Made by a program: the position numbers and the translations under genes. A stretch of DNA of 20,045 bases from a virus (taxonomy: Duplodnaviria; Heunggongvirae; Uroviricota; Caudoviricetes), in IMG/VR virus record IMGVR_UViG_2627854098_000006; one strand, 5' to 3'. How positions within the stretch are numbered: position 1 is the stretch's first letter; each line of letters opens with the position of its first letter. The notes beneath the pieces were generated by a model. The model did no database searches and was not told the origin of the DNA. It was given only the letters and a program-made list of their open reading frames with translations. Shown here piece by piece: positions 9,414 to 16,693 of the stretch.

Positions 9414-9485
9414 GTAGCTCACCTCATGCGTATACGATAAAAAATAATTTCATGCGGAAAGGGAATGCGTTGTGGGTATGGAGGA

Positions 9486-9506
9486 AAGGGGCAATAACCG
9501 CCCCTT
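9486..9506 (-). terminator. Hairpin after the small-ORF operon (weak terminator candidate)
   Basis: AAGGGGC-loop-GCCCCTT, 7 nt downstream of the stop at 9513; weak U-tract. Confidence 0.3.
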
Positions 9507-9512
9507 ACTGAT

Positions 9513-9785
9513 TCAGTTGCGCCAGGATGGCTGGCTAAGCGTGGTTTTCATTACATCATTGACGACCTGTTTTACGATTTCTGTGTTGGCAGTCGTGCTT
9601 TCAACATCAACAAAGCCATAATCGCCAATTTCCACCGTCAGGGATTCAAGTTTCTTCCCTAGAGCATCAGGCAACTCTCCACTGAACCGGTGCTGAAGAT
9701 TTTCCACCAGCAACGCCCTGAATGCCTCGCTGTTCTCTTTTTTCTGCCATAGCTGGCGTTTATCCACTCTGATATTTAATTTCAC
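9513..9785 (-). CDS. Hypothetical protein (90 aa)
   Basis: GTG start at 9783-9785 with AGAGGTGA upstream; overlaps the stop of the preceding gene (GTGA). Confidence 0.5.
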   Translation of the reverse strand: MKLNIRVDKRQLWQKKENSEAFRALLVENLQHRFSGELPDALGKKLESLTVEIGDYGFVDVESTTANTEIVKQVVNDVMKTTLSQPSWRN

Positions 9786-9949
9786 AGTCTCACCTCTTTA
9801 AGTGCCTTATCCATCAGTTGCCGGGCGATAACATGAATCGACGGTGCCACACCAAGCACAGATTTCTGACGCTCTTCGTCCTGGATGCGTTGCAGGGCTT
9901 CGATCTGCCTCCGGGAAAGTAAAACTGGCTTTACTCCGTGACCTTTCAT
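9782..9949 (-). CDS. Small hypothetical protein (55 aa; MKGHGVKPVLLSRRQIEALQRIQDEERQK...)
   Basis: ATG at 9947-9949 with GGGAGA upstream; the longer ORF-track start (10018) has no RBS and a hydrophobic junk-like leader. Confidence 0.5.
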   Translation of the reverse strand: MKGHGVKPVLLSRRQIEALQRIQDEERQKSVLGVAPSIHVIARQLMDKALKEVRL

Positions 9950-10059
9950 GATTTTTCTCCCGAATAATAACAACCACAACAATTGCACAAAATGAAATGA
10001 TAGCAACAAATGTTGCAATTAATGAAACACAATAAGGCCGGGAAAAATCCCGGCCTCCG

Positions 10060-10347
10060 TCACTGACTGCAATTTTTCGATCCAGGGTATTTCCTGAATG
10101 CCTTACCATTGGGCTGATGTAATCCCATTCCGGCATGTGCCCGGCTGATGGTTTCGCGCATCTCCCCGAAATTATCCTGCCTTGCTGGTGGGCGTGCTGC
10201 CTTGTGGATACATTCCGCGCGACGTTTTGCCGCCTGTTCCCGTGCCTTGTCATCATTCGCCAGCATGATGACCTCAGCCCACCGCGCCGCCGCTCTCCGG
10301 TACAGACCACGCGCTTCCAGTGCTTCCGCTTTGCTGTCGTGAATCAT
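10060..10347 (-). CDS. PerC-family (Pch-like) transcriptional regulator
   Basis: 95 aa; N-terminal motif AEALEARGLYRRAAARWAEVI matches the conserved core of PerC/Pch activators; start overlaps the stop of the upstream ProQ/FinO gene (ATGA at 10344-10347). Confidence 0.65.
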   Translation of the reverse strand: MIHDSKAEALEARGLYRRAAARWAEVIMLANDDKAREQAAKRRAECIHKAARPPARQDNFGEMRETISRAHAGMGLHQPNGKAFRKYPGSKNCSQ

Positions 10348-10874
10348 GCGCCTGTTTTCTCCTTTGCTGCCCGGCGCTGACGTTTGCGCTTCTCATTCAG
10401 CGCCATCAGCCGCGTTTCTGCGTCCTGTTGTTCCTGTGATGTCACCTCGCCGCACGGCTGGCCTTTCAGGTCGTAACGCGCCCCACCAGCAACCAGGGCG
10501 CGGTAATAGCGCGGAGACTGCGCATAAGATGCCAGCGTCGCACGTAATGCCCCAGGCCCAAATGCCAGCCCCCTGACGGCGAGATCCTGCATCAGGTCGT
10601 CGAATATCCCCACCTTAAGCGGCTTCGGTGCTTCCCGGCTGAATAAGTCAGGCCACAACTCAGTGAGGCGGTTAACGCGCCTGCGGTTTTTGCGCTGGCG
10701 TTTGGTCATATGCCGCCACGGTGTCGCCCCTGTGGGCTTCTGCTGCGCGTTCTGATTACCGGGCATCACTTTATATGCCGATGTGGTTTTATCCTGCTGT
10801 TGCGTCTCCTGTACCATTTTTGTGGCATACCGTAATTTCTGTTGATGGTCAGCTTTTCCATGTGTACTTCTCAT
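10344..10874 (-). CDS. ProQ/FinO-domain RNA-binding protein
   Basis: Segment ...LWPDLFSREAPKPLKVGIFDDLMQDL...LRATLASYAQSPRYYRALVAGGARYDLKGQPCGEVTSQEQQDAETRL aligns by eye with the ProQ N-terminal/FinO domain (PLKIGIFQDL...LR.AL..YT.S.RYL...GA.R.DLDG.P.GEL); lysine/arginine-rich C-tail. Start codon uncertain (weak RBS). Confidence 0.7.
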   Translation of the reverse strand: MRSTHGKADHQQKLRYATKMVQETQQQDKTTSAYKVMPGNQNAQQKPTGATPWRHMTKRQRKNRRRVNRLTELWPDLFSREAPKPLKVGIFDDLMQDLAVRGLAFGPGALRATLASYAQSPRYYRALVAGGARYDLKGQPCGEVTSQEQQDAETRLMALNEKRKRQRRAAKEKTGA

Positions 10875-10953
10875 CGATATTATCCGTATTATCGTCGTTC
10901 CTTTTGATGGCTCATTTCTATAGAAATTTCTTTATTGCTTATTGCCCTGGTAA

Positions 10954-11280
10954 TTAACTGGCTATTAGTGCTTTAATACTCAGGTACGCAGAAAGAATAA
11001 CACCAATAAAAGAAGGGTACAGCAGAATCCCAAACAAAAACTTCATGTACTTATGTTTTCCTGTCACTTCGTTAATAACAGATATTATACTCAACATACA
11101 TAATGCAATACTTATAGTTGCAATAAATGCAATAGTAAGCAAGATGAAATATCTTACACCTGTTTGAGAAGATAAATTTGCAATTATACCTATCATAACG
11201 AGACTCTGTATAATCCCGAAAGACAAAGCACCAGAAGACTTTTCCACTATTTCACTAAATTTCTTCACAAAGCAAATCAT
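10954..11280 (-). CDS. Small membrane protein (108 aa, about 3 TM helices), AT-rich cargo
   Basis: ATG at 11278-11280 with AAAGGTGA upstream; hydrophobic helices (ALSFGIIQSLVMIGIIA, YFILLTIAFIATISIALCMLSIISVI, FLFGILLYPSFIGVILSAYL); local GC clearly lower than flanks. Confidence 0.55.
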   Translation of the reverse strand: MICFVKKFSEIVEKSSGALSFGIIQSLVMIGIIANLSSQTGVRYFILLTIAFIATISIALCMLSIISVINEVTGKHKYMKFLFGILLYPSFIGVILSAYLSIKALIAS

Positions 11281-11317
11281 ATATATCACCTTTATATAAC
11301 GCTATGCTAAGGTTTAT

Positions 11318-11575
11318 TTATACGATATCCCCAAATGGTATTCCATCACCGTACGGATCACTCTGCTGGCTTTTTTGCCGCCCGGCCGCACCGTTCGCGC
11401 ACTGATTACGCTGTCTGCGATAACCAGACCAGCCACGTTTCGCCGTTCCGTCATCTGCCTGGCTGCGCGGAAGGGGAACCGCCATACTCGCCATTGCCAT
11501 TGGTGTTCCCTTGCTGGTGGTTTTTGAGTGCAGATCAGCCACCTGCCGCCCGTAAGCGGATATTTGTACCGTCAT
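11318..11575 (-). CDS. Hypothetical protein (85 aa), weak call
   Basis: ATGA overlap with the upstream ORF; low-complexity composition. Confidence 0.3.
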   Translation of the reverse strand: MTVQISAYGRQVADLHSKTTSKGTPMAMASMAVPLPRSQADDGTAKRGWSGYRRQRNQCANGAAGRQKSQQSDPYGDGIPFGDIV

Positions 11576-11772
11576 GCTGTTTGCTCTCCGGTTTTAACGT
11601 TGATGATTGTCACCTGTTCAGCTTCGGCAATCTCCCGTTCTGTCAGCATGGCAAAGTTTGCCGCTGCCGTTGTCATGAATGCGCTTATCAGTTCGGGATG
11701 TACTTTCGCGTATCCTTCCCCGGCGTTGCGGTCGATGATTTTTATCGCCTCCCTCAGCCTGTGTTCTGTCAA
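11572..11772 (-). CDS. Hypothetical protein (66 aa), weak call
   Basis: Protein-like composition but TTG start and no clear RBS. Confidence 0.3.
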   Translation of the reverse strand: MTEHRLREAIKIIDRNAGEGYAKVHPELISAFMTTAAANFAMLTEREIAEAEQVTIINVKTGEQTA

Positions 11773-11867
11773 ATCAAGGGCGTGAGATTGTGTTTTTTGT
11801 GTGCTTCGTTGTCACAGCCTTTACCTCACAGCAATAAAATAAAATTTTTGCATTTTAACCCTTCACC

Positions 11868-12089
11868 TGTTCACCTTTTTCCTTTTCTCCTTTTAATTCA
11901 TTGTGTTAATGGGTGAACAGTTTCACAAAAACTATTCACCAACTGTTCACCACTGTTCACCCTTAAAGCTCAACAAATAATCAAAAAGGTGAACAGTGAA
12001 TAGTTTGATGAACAGTTCATGAATAACTGTTCACCCTATAACCAACTGATATAGAACACATTTATTACAGGGTGAACAGTGATGAACAG
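11868..12089. repeat. Iteron array: TGTTCACC / GGTGAACA octamers (P4 ori/crr type I iteron sequence)
   Basis: Perfect TGTTCACC at 11868, 11944, 11954, 12028; perfect GGTGAACA at 11912, 11988, 12071; variants at 11933, 12008, 12082. Lies immediately 3' of the primase gene. Confidence 0.8.
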
Positions 12090-12102
12090 TTATTCCATAA
12101 GT

Positions 12103-13917
12103 TTAATTTTTGCCATCGTCATTTGTGACCGATGCACATGAGGGCATCCAGTCTTCTGAATCCTCTGTCAGTATCACGTTTGAACGCAAGCCATGCTTCG
12201 TTTTCCGTTTCATATACTCCCTGCCGTATTCCGCCATTGCCCCTGGCATATCCTTACCGAAGCGTGTCAGTGTTACGGGCTTACCGAATCCGTGTGCCCT
12301 CATATACGCCAGATAGGCGTGATAGAGATACCTGCGCGGGCTGAACGGAATAATTTCAGCATTACCCACTAACAGGCCATCGCACATTACCGACGACATG
12401 AGATAGCCGCAGAAGTCCACCAGCGAATCGCCCTCGCGTTTTATCACTAGGGCTTCTTCTGATTTCTGCTGCTCATATAGCAGGCGTTTAGCTTCGTCCT
12501 GGTCAGAAAAGCGTGTAAGCAGGTGGCGAATCACTACCGCCAGCTCTCCTTCTATTTTTTCAGCCAGCATAGGGTCACGTTCGTTCTCCGGTACAACTTC
12601 CGAAAAATTGAATATTACCCGACGACGTGATATCCCACCGCTGCGGTCACTGAATGACATGGCGTTATTGTTCACCGCCAGCACGACCGCCTGAATGCGT
12701 GTTGAGTAGGGGGCTTTATGTTTCGGGTCGATTGCCACCTTATCACCGCCTGTAATGGCCTTAATTCCTGCACCATCACCAGCGTAACGGGTCATATCCG
12801 GCATAATAATCAGCGAAAAGCCAACCACTAACGCGCGTTCCCTGGCATCTTCCAGCGCCTTCATGCTTGCCGATACCGTGTTGGCCTTACCCGCCAGCAT
12901 AGTGCAAATCTCCGCCATTACGCTTTTACCGCTTCCACCCGGCCCCGTTACCTCAAGAAATAACTGCCAGTCGTACCGATTCGCCAGCACCATGAATAAC
13001 GCCGCCAGTACGCGATCCGCTTTGCGTTCATTCTCTGCCACCGAACGGCGCAACCATTTCCAGAAATTCGGCGCATGCGTTGCCAGCGTTTCCCCCTCTG
13101 CTGGCGGGTTGAACGGTAATTCACTGGCAATTAACAACCAGTCGTTTTTGTCGTGCTCCCGAAAATCGCCTGTCCGGGTATCAAAAACACCGTTACTGAA
13201 TCCAATCAGGTTACGGGCGGTATTCCCCATTACGGGCAAACTTAACTTCATGGTATCGACCGCCGATTTGATGGCGTTCTGCGAATAGCTGATTTCCGCA
13301 TCAATAAAAATCTGCGCCATAGCCCGCTGTAACTCTTTATCCTGTACCGGCTCCCATACAACACCGTTGTAGTGGTGAACGGTGTCAGAATCCGCATTGA
13401 TTGCCAGTTCACCGCCATAATGTGCCAGGAGAACTTCGCCGCGCTGGCTTGCTCCCATCTGGTTAAGTGCCAGTGGTGTCGCGCTGTCTTCTGTTTTTTT
13501 CTTTGCCGGAAACCGGATAATCAGTCCGTCATCAATGTTTTTACGCTCACGGGCAAGGTATTCACGCCAGTTTTCACACTTCTGGCTGTGCATGCCATCA
13601 GGGTAATAATTCGCATTCTGTATACTTGCCGCCGCCAGCTTCTGACCAATTGCCTTAACCATTACAGGATCTAACTGTCCGGCTCTGAATATGCGCGCGG
13701 ATGTGCGCCCATCAGGCACTATTTGCAGATTTCCGATCTCTTTCAGTTGTTCATCAGCCAGCACAACAGGTGGCTCATTATCTCCAGCCATACGCGCATC
13801 GTGCTCCTGCCATTGTTTCGCGTGTGCCCAGGCATCACTACCCGCGAAAATAATTACCTCTGTGTCTTTGTGTTTTATTCCGCGTGGCTGTTTTTTTACG
13901 TTCGGTGCCAGTTTCAT
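12103..13917 (-). CDS. Phage/plasmid primase-helicase, P4 alpha-type C-terminal NTPase domain
   Basis: 604 aa; Walker A VTGPGGSGKSV and a downstream hydrophobic-D Walker B candidate (LVVGFSLIIMPDM); last gene of a coupled operon (ATGA overlap at 13914-13917); iterons downstream. Confidence 0.75.
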   Translation of the reverse strand: MKLAPNVKKQPRGIKHKDTEVIIFAGSDAWAHAKQWQEHDARMAGDNEPPVVLADEQLKEIGNLQIVPDGRTSARIFRAGQLDPVMVKAIGQKLAAASIQNANYYPDGMHSQKCENWREYLARERKNIDDGLIIRFPAKKKTEDSATPLALNQMGASQRGEVLLAHYGGELAINADSDTVHHYNGVVWEPVQDKELQRAMAQIFIDAEISYSQNAIKSAVDTMKLSLPVMGNTARNLIGFSNGVFDTRTGDFREHDKNDWLLIASELPFNPPAEGETLATHAPNFWKWLRRSVAENERKADRVLAALFMVLANRYDWQLFLEVTGPGGSGKSVMAEICTMLAGKANTVSASMKALEDARERALVVGFSLIIMPDMTRYAGDGAGIKAITGGDKVAIDPKHKAPYSTRIQAVVLAVNNNAMSFSDRSGGISRRRVIFNFSEVVPENERDPMLAEKIEGELAVVIRHLLTRFSDQDEAKRLLYEQQKSEEALVIKREGDSLVDFCGYLMSSVMCDGLLVGNAEIIPFSPRRYLYHAYLAYMRAHGFGKPVTLTRFGKDMPGAMAEYGREYMKRKTKHGLRSNVILTEDSEDWMPSCASVTNDDGKN

Positions 13918-14156
13918 TTTTTCCCCCCTGCAACCAGCATTTCACGGATTTTGCGGATATAGCTTGCTGCACGTTTTTGATTTACGGCTTTATAATGGTC
14001 CACCAGCGTAAAATCACGGCGGTAGGTGATATTGCCTGGCGTAACGTGACGAATAACCACTCGTCCCCCACGTCTGGTGTCGCGGTAAATATCTCCGAGT
14101 CTGATTTCAGGCCGAGAGAGACCGCTGGCAGTAAAGCCAGAATTTTTCTTTTTCAT
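13914..14156 (-). CDS. Hypothetical protein (80 aa), early operon
   Basis: ATG with AGGAAA upstream; coupled to the primase gene. Confidence 0.5.
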   Translation of the reverse strand: MKKKNSGFTASGLSRPEIRLGDIYRDTRRGGRVVIRHVTPGNITYRRDFTLVDHYKAVNQKRAASYIRKIREMLVAGGKK

Positions 14157-14160
14157 GGTT

Positions 14161-14361
14161 TTATTTTCCTGTCAGCAGTTCCGGTTTTATTTCCGCACGA
14201 ATATAAAGTTCAGAAAAAAATTCAGGAGAACCAACAATCTCATTACTTTTCAGTCGGCATTGTGATTTCACTTTCCCTTTATCCAGGTAAACCAGTACGC
14301 GTCCGGTGAAATCATCTGGCACATTAAGCACTACGGGTACATGCGCTTCATGATTATGCAT
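14161..14361 (-). CDS. Hypothetical protein (66 aa) carrying one copy of an FTG-x-x-L-V...G motif domain
   Basis: ATG with GGAGGA upstream; 8-nt overlap with the upstream gene; N-terminus MHNHEAHVPVVLNVPDDFTGRVLVYLDKGKV parallels the N-terminus of the 14580-14945 protein. Confidence 0.55.
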   Translation of the reverse strand: MHNHEAHVPVVLNVPDDFTGRVLVYLDKGKVKSQCRLKSNEIVGSPEFFSELYIRAEIKPELLTGK

Positions 14362-14587
14362 GGCTTACATCCTCCGTGAATTTTCTTCTGTAACGCGTCT
14401 CTGCCACATATTCCGCATAGTCCGACGCAATACTAAGAATCATTTCACCCTCTGACTTGTAGCCACTGGTATTGATAAGAAAATATGCAGCTTTCATCAT
14501 GTCAGCAACGCTCAACAATGCGCCCGCTGCATCTTCCGGTGCGCCATCAAATTCCCGTTTCAGGGAATTAAAACGATCATCACGCAT
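14354..14587 (-). CDS. Hypothetical protein (77 aa), early operon
   Basis: ATG with AGGGGGGG upstream; 8-nt overlaps on both sides. Confidence 0.5.
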   Translation of the reverse strand: MRDDRFNSLKREFDGAPEDAAGALLSVADMMKAAYFLINTSGYKSEGEMILSIASDYAEYVAETRYRRKFTEDVSHA

Positions 14588-14945
14588 GTTTCCCCCCCTG
14601 AATGACCTGATAACCGCAACTGGTCAGCAACTCGATAAATTCCGGCAGTGTACCGAAACAGCAATCATCACGCAGCCGTTCGCAGGATACCTCGACGCCG
14701 TTTTCGTAGTGACTCACCATACGTCCGGTAAAATGCAGATCATCATCGTGATGGCTCGTTGACGGCTTAATCAGTCGCACACGTTCCGCCAGTTCCAGCA
14801 ATGCTTCAACGCTTCCGGCAATTGCACCATCCGGCAGGTGATAATTACGCACTATGCGCCCGTTCTCCACATTGACCAGCAACTGCCCGGTAAATTTCTC
14901 GTCAAACTGAATGCTGTTAAGGTCAGAAATTGACAGGTTATGCAT
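14580..14945 (-). CDS. Hypothetical protein (121 aa) with two tandem copies of the FTG-motif domain
   Basis: ATG at 14943-14945 preceded by AGGAGGTG (the ORF-track start at 14963 lacks an RBS); MHNLSISDLNSIQFDEKFTGQLLVNVENGRIV and DDDLHFTGRMVSHYENGVEV are internal repeats. Confidence 0.55.
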   Translation of the reverse strand: MHNLSISDLNSIQFDEKFTGQLLVNVENGRIVRNYHLPDGAIAGSVEALLELAERVRLIKPSTSHHDDDLHFTGRMVSHYENGVEVSCERLRDDCCFGTLPEFIELLTSCGYQVIQGGKHA

Positions 14946-15162
14946 GGTGCACCTCCTGCACATCAGCCATGATAATTTTTCCGGCCTTATCCAGTGCCTG
15001 ATCGGCTTTTAGCTGCACAAATGCTAAATAATGGAAGATGCATTCTGATTCTCTGGCTGCGTGTTTATGCGCCACACCAGCGATAGCAGAAATCTCAATA
15101 AGTGAATCCATCAGCGTTTTGATAGCGTCTACCGCTGCATCAGGCCATGTTGCATTACACAT
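14938..15162 (-). CDS. Hypothetical protein (74 aa), early operon
   Basis: ATG at 15160-15162 preceded by AGGAGGTG; 8-nt overlap with the upstream gene. Confidence 0.5.
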   Translation of the reverse strand: MCNATWPDAAVDAIKTLMDSLIEISAIAGVAHKHAARESECIFHYLAFVQLKADQALDKAGKIIMADVQEVHHA

Positions 15163-15520
15163 GCTCCACCTCCTGGCGAATACGGGCGGCGAATACCATC
15201 ACGCAGCCATCAGGAGATTGCTGGCGTGCTTCCTGTTCGCTGGTGGCCTCGATGTGAATTACACGCGGTTGTGCTGTGCTCAGGGCGATAAAACGCCATA
15301 TAAAATTGTTTTCGCATTTCTGAATAAACAGCGTGTTTTCTTCGCGCCCTTTCCATGTTGCCGAGATATAGCCCATGTCATTGAGCATCTCGCAGGCATC
15401 AACCAGCGTATCGGCGGCTATGTGTACAGTGTTTTTACCGTCAGCGATGCAATCACGGTGCACCGCCAGGAAGGTGTATATAAATTTAGGGTGAGTTTGG
15501 GTATGCTGTGTTCCAGCCAT
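15155..15520 (-). CDS. Hypothetical protein (121 aa), first gene of the early operon
   Basis: ATG at 15518-15520 preceded by GAGGT (7-nt spacer); corresponds to the C-terminal third of the 512-aa ORF-track entry, the rest of which I regard as read-through. Confidence 0.55.
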   Translation of the reverse strand: MAGTQHTQTHPKFIYTFLAVHRDCIADGKNTVHIAADTLVDACEMLNDMGYISATWKGREENTLFIQKCENNFIWRFIALSTAQPRVIHIEATSEQEARQQSPDGCVMVFAARIRQEVEHV

Positions 15521-15522
15521 AA

Positions 15523-15707
15523 TCGTTACCTCGTTTAACGGTTTGGTTAGACGCCCCGCTACTGCCGCAAACAGTTCGGGGCGTTGTCGTTTACATCCTC
15601 TTACCGAGGTGTGATTTAAATTAAATTTAACTGAATCACAGGTCAAGTATTTTTTGTGATTCTTTTTTGTGTATACTGAATCACATCTTTTGTTTAGGAG
15701 AATGCAC
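15523..15707. promoter_or_regulatory. Divergent control region: leader hairpin plus two palindromic operators TGTGATT-N17-AATCACA
   Basis: Operator O1 15609-15639, O2 15654-15684 (O2 overlaps a TATACT -10-like hexamer at 15671-15676); 8-bp GC-rich stem ACGCCCCG/CGGGGCGT at 15551-15584 in the 5' leader of the minus-strand operon. Confidence 0.6.
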
Positions 15708-16013
15708 ATGGCAAAAAACACTATCAACGACAAATCAAAACAGATTTCAATTCGTATCCCACATGATGCTTTTGAAGGCATGGAATCCGTAAAACTGGAC
15801 GGCGAAAGCAACGCCGGATTCATCGTAACCGCTATGCGCGGTGAGATCGCCCGCCGCCAGGCAGAAGGAAGAGGAGAAAATCCCTTGGTTTCTTCGCTCG
15901 ATGCACTGGCGCAGGTGGAAAAAATCGGAGTCAAAGCTGCCGAGGAGATCGGGCAACTCATCACCGTCGCGCGTGAAGAACTCCAGCGCCGCAAGGCCAA
16001 AGAACAGGAGTAA
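15708..16013 (+). CDS. Small regulatory-type protein (101 aa), divergent from the early operon; candidate repressor
   Basis: ATG at 15708 preceded by AGGAGA (6-nt spacer); N-terminus KQISIRIPHDAFEGMESVKLDGESNAGFIVTAMRGEIARRQ is compatible with a ribbon-helix-helix-like fold (inference only); charged coiled C-terminus. Confidence 0.55.
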   Translation: MAKNTINDKSKQISIRIPHDAFEGMESVKLDGESNAGFIVTAMRGEIARRQAEGRGENPLVSSLDALAQVEKIGVKAAEEIGQLITVAREELQRRKAKEQE

Positions 16014-16070
16014 CCATCACCAGCGCCGTGGTGTGAGGAACTACGGTGCATCGTTTTACAGGGCAGCGCC

Positions 16071-16271
16071 ATGACCAACAAAGAATCAACCAATACACCA
16101 TCACCGGCACGGAAAAGACAGCGCAGAAAGATAGCGTACGAGTATGAGTCAGACAGATTCGCGCCCTGTGCGTTTATCCTTGAGAAATTCCTTAAAGAGT
16201 ACAGGCGCACAAAAATGGGGTCGCATACCTGGAAAACATCGCGGCATGGCAATGTTAAAGAGCAGGAATAG
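16071..16271 (+). CDS. Hypothetical small basic protein (66 aa), weak call
   Basis: ATG start without a clear RBS; plausible composition. Confidence 0.3.
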   Translation: MTNKESTNTPSPARKRQRRKIAYEYESDRFAPCAFILEKFLKEYRRTKMGSHTWKTSRHGNVKEQE

Positions 16272-16299
16272 CCCACCAGCAAGCCAGCACACTGATCAC

Positions 16300-16693
16300 A
16301 TTGCCCACCAGCCGCAAATCTGGCATTGTTGGTGATGCGTTCAAGTGTGTAGCTTTCCCACTGGTGGCCCTCTGCGGTCGCCTTTGTTTTATCCAGAACG
16401 AAATCAGACATCAGATTGGTCAGCACCTGGCGACCTGACAAAATCGCATCAGTCGCGCCACCAGCAAAATTTTTTGCTCTCCGGACAGCGTGACCAACGG
16501 CATTTTGCAGCAAAATATTCTGCATTTCTGGTGTGCTGTAGTAACGGTGATCAGCGCCTTCACTCTGTGCGACCACAACGCTATAATCTGCCTCGTAGAC
16601 AGTAAGCAATATGGCGCAGTAGGCTATTCGTTCACAAAGGCGCTCCGGCAACGGGGCGCTTTCTCTTTTTGTAACGGTCAGAACGTTACACAT
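16300..16693 (-). CDS. Hypothetical protein; start well supported, 3' end unresolved (no in-frame stop until 15152)
   Basis: ATG at 16691-16693 preceded by GGAGGAAAA and overlapping the antirepressor stop by 8 nt; the translation looks protein-like for about 130 residues and then degrades. Possible frameshift or lost stop, so the lower coordinate is approximate. Confidence 0.3.

Follow-up and report, generated by a model that had tools for sequence, protein, structure and literature searches.

The exclusion proteins T4 Imm, HK97 gp15 and P22 SieA are small inner-membrane proteins encoded by morons or other accessory genes, and they provide one point of comparison for the locus presented here. 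We analyzed a stretch of 20,045 nucleotides (hereafter the window; IMG/VR virus record IMGVR_UViG_2627854098_000006) that is 100% identical to the chromosome of avian pathogenic Escherichia coli (APEC) strain IMT5155, and we focused on a minus-strand open reading frame (ORF) of 108 amino acids (aa) within an AT-rich segment of a phage satellite. The results indicate that this ORF is very probably a genuine membrane-protein accessory gene of the satellite, for which phage exclusion or defence at the membrane is tentatively proposed as the single most likely function. Its likeness to genes of the T4 Imm, HK97 gp15 and P22 SieA type is one of arrangement, where a lone, partner-free gene of low G+C content for a small membrane protein lies in a phage-related element between genes that are adjacent in relatives. 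The differences are that no sequence or profile similarity links the proteins, that ours has three transmembrane (TM) helices and theirs one or two, and that the gene described here has no detectable promoter or terminator of its own.

A second described system, EcCIMP1 of E. coli MP1, is a phage-inducible chromosomal island (PICI) that was mobilised experimentally and confers superinfection immunity without a recognised defence system (PMC11773190). Anti-phage cargo is common in satellites of these types (PMC13612085, PMC10085698). Comparison of EcCIMP1 with the element in our window reveals an identical proA/tRNA-Thr/MarR-vat locus and an identical attachment (att) core, TCCTATTATC (PMC11773190), and genes for an integrase, AlpA, an antirepressor, a primase and PerC are present in both. 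The two differ in that EcCIMP1 is 20 kb long and carries other cargo, and its description mentions neither the small gene studied here nor ProQ or ssb (PMC11773190). Because the elements differ, the gene is unreported in EcCIMP1, and MP1 is absent from the 11 genomes that carry the AT-rich segment, the EcCIMP1 phenotype is not assignable to the small TM gene.

The AT-rich segment and its open reading frame

The segment was first addressed by base composition and by comparison with related elements. In 200-nt windows the G+C fraction is 0.295-0.335 across positions ~10900-11300, where the left flank has 0.56-0.64 and the right flank 0.56. Measured by feature, positions 10876-11317 (442 nt) have a G+C fraction of 0.319, as against 0.571 for the ProQ gene on one side and 0.541 for positions 11318-11772 on the other. 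In relatives that lack the gene (ATCC 43886, E200086 and CV839-06), the stop codon of ssb is separated from the start of proQ by 35-36 nt, as against 443 nt in the window. Since ssb and proQ lie so close together in these related satellites, the segment is, on comparative grounds, an optional accessory (moron-type) insertion relative to related elements, with a base composition (0.32) that deviates from that of its flanks (0.54-0.57). The original prediction, made from the letters alone, had described a sharp drop in G+C at about 10880-11300 and had called the segment an insertion; the drop, to ~0.30 between flanks of 0.54-0.64, and the empty junctions in three related elements bear out both statements. 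The segment is rare, being carried by 11 of 5426 complete E. coli genomes (each at 98.4% identity or more), where its flanks are matched in 1388 of the same 5426. A search for small hydrophobic ORFs between the replication gene and proQ of PICIs that lack ssb (ETEC1738 and EC11) found none that was convincing.

The sole long ORF in the segment runs on the minus strand from an ATG at 11280 to a stop codon at 10954-10956. In a program-made ORF list the frame starts further out, with a GTG at 11289 (111 aa); the ATG is preferred because it aligns with the start codon of a diverged homologue. The Shine-Dalgarno sequence ahead of the ATG (Table 1) is weaker (AACGGAT) in the diverged, ~76%-identical copies. 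The original prediction had reported one small hydrophobic ORF with a good ribosome-binding site and had left the strand unstated; that description stands, with AAGGTGAT lying 4-5 nt before the ATG on the minus strand.

Homologues were then used to ask how the ORF has evolved. A word-indexed search of 5.8 billion proteins returned two clusters only, at 97% and 76% identity. The 76%-identical copy, found on two metagenomic contigs and one IMG/VR contig, lies between an intact 140-aa gene for a single-stranded DNA-binding protein (SSB) and ProQ-PerC, that is to say in the same slot, and the diverged copies are also low in G+C (0.37, versus ~0.55 upstream and 0.50 downstream). Comparison of the ORF with this copy gives a ratio of nonsynonymous to synonymous divergence (dN/dS) of 0.24, with 21, 8 and 39 differences at codon positions 1, 2 and 3, respectively. 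Synonymous divergence (dS) from the diverged lineage is 0.66 for the ORF, 0.62 for ProQ and 1.0 for PerC. The low dN/dS, together with a dS close to that of ProQ, points to purifying selection and to divergence of the ORF together with its neighbours, and because the ORF and ProQ values match, the insertion is, on this estimate, not recent in this lineage. Among close copies, the ORF is intact in all eight compared (the window and seven further loci), where the flanking ssb is decayed and proQ is frameshifted. Its product is 98% identical to a RefSeq entry of strain 67-1, WP_000639079.1, which is named 'hypothetical protein', and a literature search for accession WP_000639079 found no paper.

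These comparisons bear directly on the alternative that the ORF is a chance reading frame in AT-rich filler or in an ori-like spacer and has no function. Such a reading would account for the Prokaryotic Genome Annotation Pipeline (PGAP) leaving the ORF unannotated in 6 of the 11 carrier genomes, including IMT5155 and ABU 83972, and for the lack of a database family that contains it. It is contradicted by the signature of purifying selection with its third-position bias, by the existence of homologues at 25-45% identity that have invariant residues in common, and by the length of the ORF, given that 5000 shuffles of the 442-nt segment, with dinucleotides preserved, produced a stop-free run of 108 codons or more only 17 times. 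An iteron-type ori is, moreover, located elsewhere, at 11855-12100. The chance-ORF reading is close to refuted and can be given almost no weight; judged from its pattern of substitution, the ORF is a real gene under purifying selection.

Table 1. The small gene, its surroundings and the satellite that holds them (window positions; a dot stands for no strand)
Feature	Position	Strand	Basis or remark
Coding sequence of predicted small inner-membrane protein, three TM helices, MICFVKKFSEIVEKSSGALSFG...	10954..11280	-	ORF list, hydropathy, homologues
Putative Shine-Dalgarno sequence AAGGTGAT	11285..11292	-	Read from sequence; 4-5 nt to ATG
AT-rich optional segment (32% G+C)	10875..11317	.	ssb stop to proQ start, 443 nt
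Decayed ssb-like gene, upstream flank	11318..11575	-	Alignments with intact 141-aa SSBs; RefSeq pseudogene
ProQ/FinO-domain gene, downstream flank	10344..10874	-	Pfam PF04352, E = 1.2e-24; RefSeq 'frameshifted'
Perfect 12-nt palindrome TTTCTATAGAAA	10915..10926	.	In 79-nt spacer between ORF stop and annotated ProQ ORF start
Phage satellite, PICI-type by gene content, 14.3 kb	5894..20045, continuing past right window end	-	RefSeq (APEC IMT5155), Pfam, att cores

Membrane topology and protein family

Both hydropathy and structure prediction agree with the three-helix membrane protein of 108 aa that had originally been proposed. Kyte-Doolittle values in 19-residue windows exceed 1.6 at residues ~15-37, 40-74 and 78-108, and an AlphaFold2 model built from 24 family sequences (predicted local distance difference test score, pLDDT, of 70.7) presents long helices at residues 2-36, 42-73 and 77-107. 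An earlier AlphaFold2 model from 3 sequences was set aside as too poor (pLDDT 57.5). Averaged over the 24 family members, lysine plus arginine number 3.5 at the N-terminus, 0.5 in loop 1, 2.4 in loop 2 and 0.8 at the C-terminus. Application of the positive-inside rule to these counts predicts three inner-membrane helices in an N-in/C-out topology, where the N-terminal amphipathic segment and the basic loop between TM2 and TM3 would face the cytoplasm and the short C-terminus the periplasm.

The predicted topology is informative with respect to holins. Class I holins, such as lambda S105 (~105 aa), have three TM helices in ~95-110 aa, adopt an N-out/C-in topology and end in a charged cytoplasmic tail. 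The gene product likewise has three TM helices, in 108 aa, and satellites rely on helper lysis, so that a holin- or antiholin-like modulator could be imagined that shifts the timing of helper lysis to favour release of satellite particles; a holin-like protein was also among the options originally listed. Beyond length and TM number the likeness ends, since the protein is unlike class I holins in predicted topology, C-tail, neighbours, family and presence in phages. Its predicted orientation is the reverse, the 4-6 residues that follow TM3 leave no charged cytoplasmic tail, and there is no dual-start motif. The island contains no endolysin, spanin or other lysis gene, the protein matches no holin family in Pfam or PHROGs, and no homologue occurs in 50,697 phage genomes. 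With the opposite topology predicted and an island devoid of lysis genes, a holin-like function is disfavoured, and modulation of lysis is very unlikely to be the role of the protein.

To define the family, a profile of 3 sequences was searched with HMMER against 1.84 billion representative proteins, yielding 13 remote relatives; a second profile built from those relatives retrieved 33 proteins. The result is a small family of ~30 clusters in Enterobacterales, all of whose members are called 'hypothetical' and whose named sources are Klebsiella, Pantoea and Kosakonia. Searches of Pfam, NCBIfam, PHROGs and PADLOC gave no meaningful match for any member. Relatives are 25-45% identical to the window protein, with S16-G17, I69 and G93 invariant and Q25 nearly so. 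Pfam gives no domain match for the window protein, and 24 members searched at E up to 5 return scattered noise in which no family is matched by more than 6 members. A search of the family profile against PDB sequences returned nothing, and a degenerate-pattern scan of 185,579 species genomes yielded no confirmed relative. The family is new and unnamed in sequence, and its kind is familiar, that of accessory genes by which phage-related elements encode small membrane proteins.

Inspection of the genomic contexts reveals that members are stand-alone genes that recur in three satellite types (PICI, capsid-forming PICI and P4-like). In addition to the PICI lineage of the window and the 76%-identity PICI lineage, where the same slot is occupied and ssb is intact, a homologue lies directly after the primase gene of a capsid-forming PICI that also carries putAbiC, and another follows the alpha-type (Zn-ribbon/Toprim/D5_N) primase gene of a P4-like element. 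Further copies are found in an AlpA/AntA element, near DUF3289/DUF943 genes, and on a 303-kb Klebsiella variicola plasmid, in a stretch rich in defence genes that holds Ppl, DUF4041, HicAB, Fic, a GIY-YIG nuclease and a bacteriocin immunity gene. The last three contexts are chromosomal, in Klebsiella and Pantoea. Most family copies are lower in G+C than their surroundings. A BLASTP comparison of eight contexts (E up to 1e-3) found no neighbouring protein common to them, which suggests that the protein works without a dedicated partner.

Candidate functions of the protein

We consider phage exclusion or defence at the membrane level to be the single most likely function, at a confidence somewhat below even. 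This role is favoured by analogy, because satellites carry anti-phage cargo and because a PICI at the same locus gives immunity without a recognised defence system. The protein would work by itself in the inner membrane, to the benefit of satellite and host alike, and would exclude or abort infection by competing phages; it might, for instance, interfere with an inner-membrane host factor through which phage DNA enters, or perturb the membrane when a phage infects. It probably has no share in the replication or packaging machinery of the satellite. A stronger form of this proposal, which we regard as possible but doubtful, is that the family constitutes a new single-gene, membrane-acting exclusion factor of three helices and N-in/C-out topology, unrelated to known superinfection exclusion (Sie), abortive infection (Abi) or immunity proteins and shared horizontally by three unrelated satellite lineages and by plasmid defence islands of Enterobacterales.

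Several results weigh against an exclusion role. The protein matches no known defence or exclusion family (no hits in PADLOC, Pfam or NCBIfam, and noise in PHROGs at E of 0.14 or more), and a fold search of the AlphaFold2 model against BFVD and PDB returned generic helical-hairpin matches only, all with E > 0.3. No copy is present in the 50,697 phage genomes, and some members occupy apparently non-mobile chromosomal sites, for example downstream of a Klebsiella two-component system. The gene itself sits inside the replication and regulation string of the satellite rather than in the exchangeable cargo slot at attR. A simple consensus scan, which may miss a weak promoter, found no sigma-70-like site directly upstream on the minus strand, the sole minus-strand promoter-like match lying inside the ORF at 11212-11183, and neither a terminator-like site nor a stable fold was found downstream. 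The case for exclusion is a plausible one that rests on association throughout.

Were the protein to block phage entry or abort infection, the known defences borne by satellites would gain a membrane effector that is very compact and needs no partner, and it would help to explain how PICIs without recognisable defence systems protect their hosts, as at this same locus (PMC11773190). The gene at present stands as an ordinary accessory gene for a 'hypothetical small membrane protein'. It is skipped by PGAP in over half of the carrier genomes, the well-studied ABU 83972 among them, and is thus invisible to annotation-based surveys.

The position of the gene raises the alternative of a housekeeping role unrelated to conflict, either for the satellite, as a membrane anchor in replication or partition of the excised island, or for the host, as a modulator of a membrane process; the gene would be retained because it helps to maintain the island. 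In favour of this, the gene lies within the primase-ssb-proQ-perC string and reads in the same direction as its neighbours, its divergence is co-linear with theirs, and three types of satellite have it shortly downstream of the primase/ori module. A general requirement of this kind fits poorly with the related PICIs, most of which lack the gene and are presumably functional, with the mobilisation of EcCIMP1-type elements that have no reported homologue (PMC11773190), and with the occurrence of members outside satellites. A housekeeping role is consequently regarded as unlikely.

The plasmid and AlpA/AntA contexts bring in a different form of protection, in which the protein would be an orphan immunity protein that intercepts the helices of competitors' membrane-targeting toxins in the inner membrane, these being pore-forming colicins, microcins, or membrane effectors of contact-dependent inhibition (CDI) or type VI secretion systems (T6SS). 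Immunity proteins against E1-group pore formers have an N-in/C-out topology, and the family resembles them in size, in its three TM helices and in its predicted orientation. The colicin E1 immunity protein itself (113 aa, PF03526) is alike in its length range (~100-115 aa), three helices, AT-rich gene and inner-membrane location. Low G+C content, stand-alone genes and a patchy distribution fit such a role, as do the plasmid homologue ~7 kb from the annotated bacteriocin immunity gene and the homologue near DUF3289/DUF943 genes. The profile comparison does not follow suit: hhalign of the family against the ColE1 immunity protein gives a probability of 0.14% (E = 0.42), where the same ColE1 sequence, extracted from plasmid NC_001371, matches its own Pfam family PF03526 at 1e-33. 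Searches with the 24 family members gave no match to an immunity family for colicins or microcins, the small TM gene and its homologues have no linked toxin gene in any context, and no colicin structural gene is present in the window or related loci. Homology to the colicin E1 immunity protein is rejected on the hhalign result, by which functional analogy is not itself rejected. As with housekeeping, we hold an immunity role to be unlikely.

A further reading is that of a membrane toxin or addiction factor, toxins being among the functions first suggested for such proteins. When over-produced, the protein would depolarise or permeabilise the inner membrane; it would stabilise the island as a type I-like toxin paired with an antisense RNA, or else act by itself as an effector of abortive infection. 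It is hydrophobic and has small-residue motifs that could drive oligomerisation, and its AT-rich DNA contains several promoter-like sites antisense to the ORF (11061-11118). Promoter-like matches in DNA of 30% G+C are only ~2x the shuffle expectation, which tells against the toxin reading. Type I toxins are peptides of under ~60 aa with one helix, and a protein of 108 aa with three helices is far larger. An Rfam scan of 10300-12200 found no RNA in the segment and returned only hairpin artefacts in the iteron ori, and the substitutions in the ORF are evenly spread, without the local dip in synonymous change by which an RNA inside the ORF would show itself. The search for a cognate antitoxin that the original prediction had proposed is answered by the eight contexts, where the lack of a conserved neighbour or partner gene weakens a classical toxin-antitoxin reading. 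A toxin or addiction function is therefore rated as quite unlikely. Upstream of 11 family members, no relevant LexA box was found.

The host satellite and neighbouring features

The element that holds the gene is delimited as a 14.3-kb island because direct repeats of TCCTATTATC lie at both ends. One copy of this 10-nt core is at window positions 5894-5903 and the other lies inside tRNA-Thr (thrW), past the window, at source-locus positions 21920-21929. Read along the minus strand, the element encodes a tyrosine integrase, a small helix-turn-helix (HTH) regulator (AlpA-like), an AntA/AntB antirepressor, an Icd-like protein, a DUF4222 protein and a D5_N/Pox_D5 primase. Between the primase gene and the ssb pseudogene lie the iteron ori and a 66-aa ORF, and beyond the pseudogene come the small TM gene, ProQ/FinO, PerC, several small ORFs, a DUF4747 gene with a gene for a 199-aa protein, and attR. 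Integrase, AlpA-type regulator, primase and att repeats are thus all present, virion and lysis genes are absent, and the length falls within the ~10-20 kb of Gram-negative PICIs. This content and architecture agree with PICIs as described (PMC11773190, PMC13612085), and by annotation, Pfam matches and att repeats the host element is a PICI-type phage satellite, which confirms the earlier placement of the gene in a mobile element. A near-identical copy of the element in strain 67-1 occupies a second site, at yicC/dinD, and has another integrase and other terminal cargo, which shows past mobility and modular exchange.

Both genes that flank the AT-rich segment are altered. In the ssb pseudogene, an internal deletion has removed ~120 nt of the oligonucleotide/oligosaccharide-binding (OB) fold core and the stop codon is lost, but the tip DPYGDGIPF can still be recognised at the C-terminus. 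The same ssb lesion is common to the copies in ABU 83972, strain 67-1 and IMT5155, though the element occupies two integration sites. For ProQ, a 1-nt indel and a 12-nt deletion put the canonical start (ATG 10861, MEKLTINR...) out of frame. Another ATG lies further upstream, at 10874 within the AT-rich segment, and opens a frame of 176 aa in which the FinO domain is intact. Although labelled 'frameshifted' by RefSeq, the gene may still be functional with a new N-terminus.

The spacer between the small gene and the ProQ/FinO gene contains the perfect palindrome to which the original prediction had drawn attention. Its presence there is confirmed, at 10915-10926 rather than the 10916-10927 first given, a shift of one base. 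Any significance above chance is not upheld, as the window contains 4 perfect 12-nt palindromes against ~4.9 expected (our own estimate, 20045/4^6) and this one is not conserved in the diverged 76%-identical relatives. RNA around the palindrome folds no better than shuffled sequence (z = 0.47). A role as operator or terminator was considered and rejected on these grounds, the palindrome being at chance level, unconserved and unstructured, and we judge it to be incidental.

Further observations concern other parts of the satellite. Directly downstream of the primase gene (12103-13917, minus strand), the AT-rich positions 11855-12100 contain nine or more repeats of GGTGAACAGT / ACTGTTCACC, which occur in both orientations. 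This array, which gave spurious microRNA-hairpin matches in Rfam, most probably serves the PICI as its iteron-type origin of replication. Adjoining attR, a two-gene cargo of low G+C (~0.35) at 6588-8080 (minus strand) encodes a DUF4747 protein (297 aa, Pfam E = 9.5e-98) and the 199-aa protein, which belongs to no family. Neither cargo gene has a convincing PADLOC match. In the island of strain 67-1 this slot is filled instead by a 662-aa 'RNA-binding domain' protein, and the attR slot looks like an exchangeable accessory or defence slot. A 178-aa ORF at 8886-9422 (minus strand) has a first ~30 residues that weakly match excisionase/HTH_17 models, below curated cut-offs; it may be the counterpart of the second, atypically placed AlpA/Xis-like gene of EcCIMP1.

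Past attR, positions 1-5733 belong to a second, older island, so that tandem islands lie at thrW. This older island retains a fragment of an integrase Arm domain (~5398-5733) and a MarR-family regulator gene (4436-4960). Its vat autotransporter gene (~732-4310) is annotated as a partial pseudogene without its N-terminus, and an IS66 TnpA gene (1-678) lies beside it.

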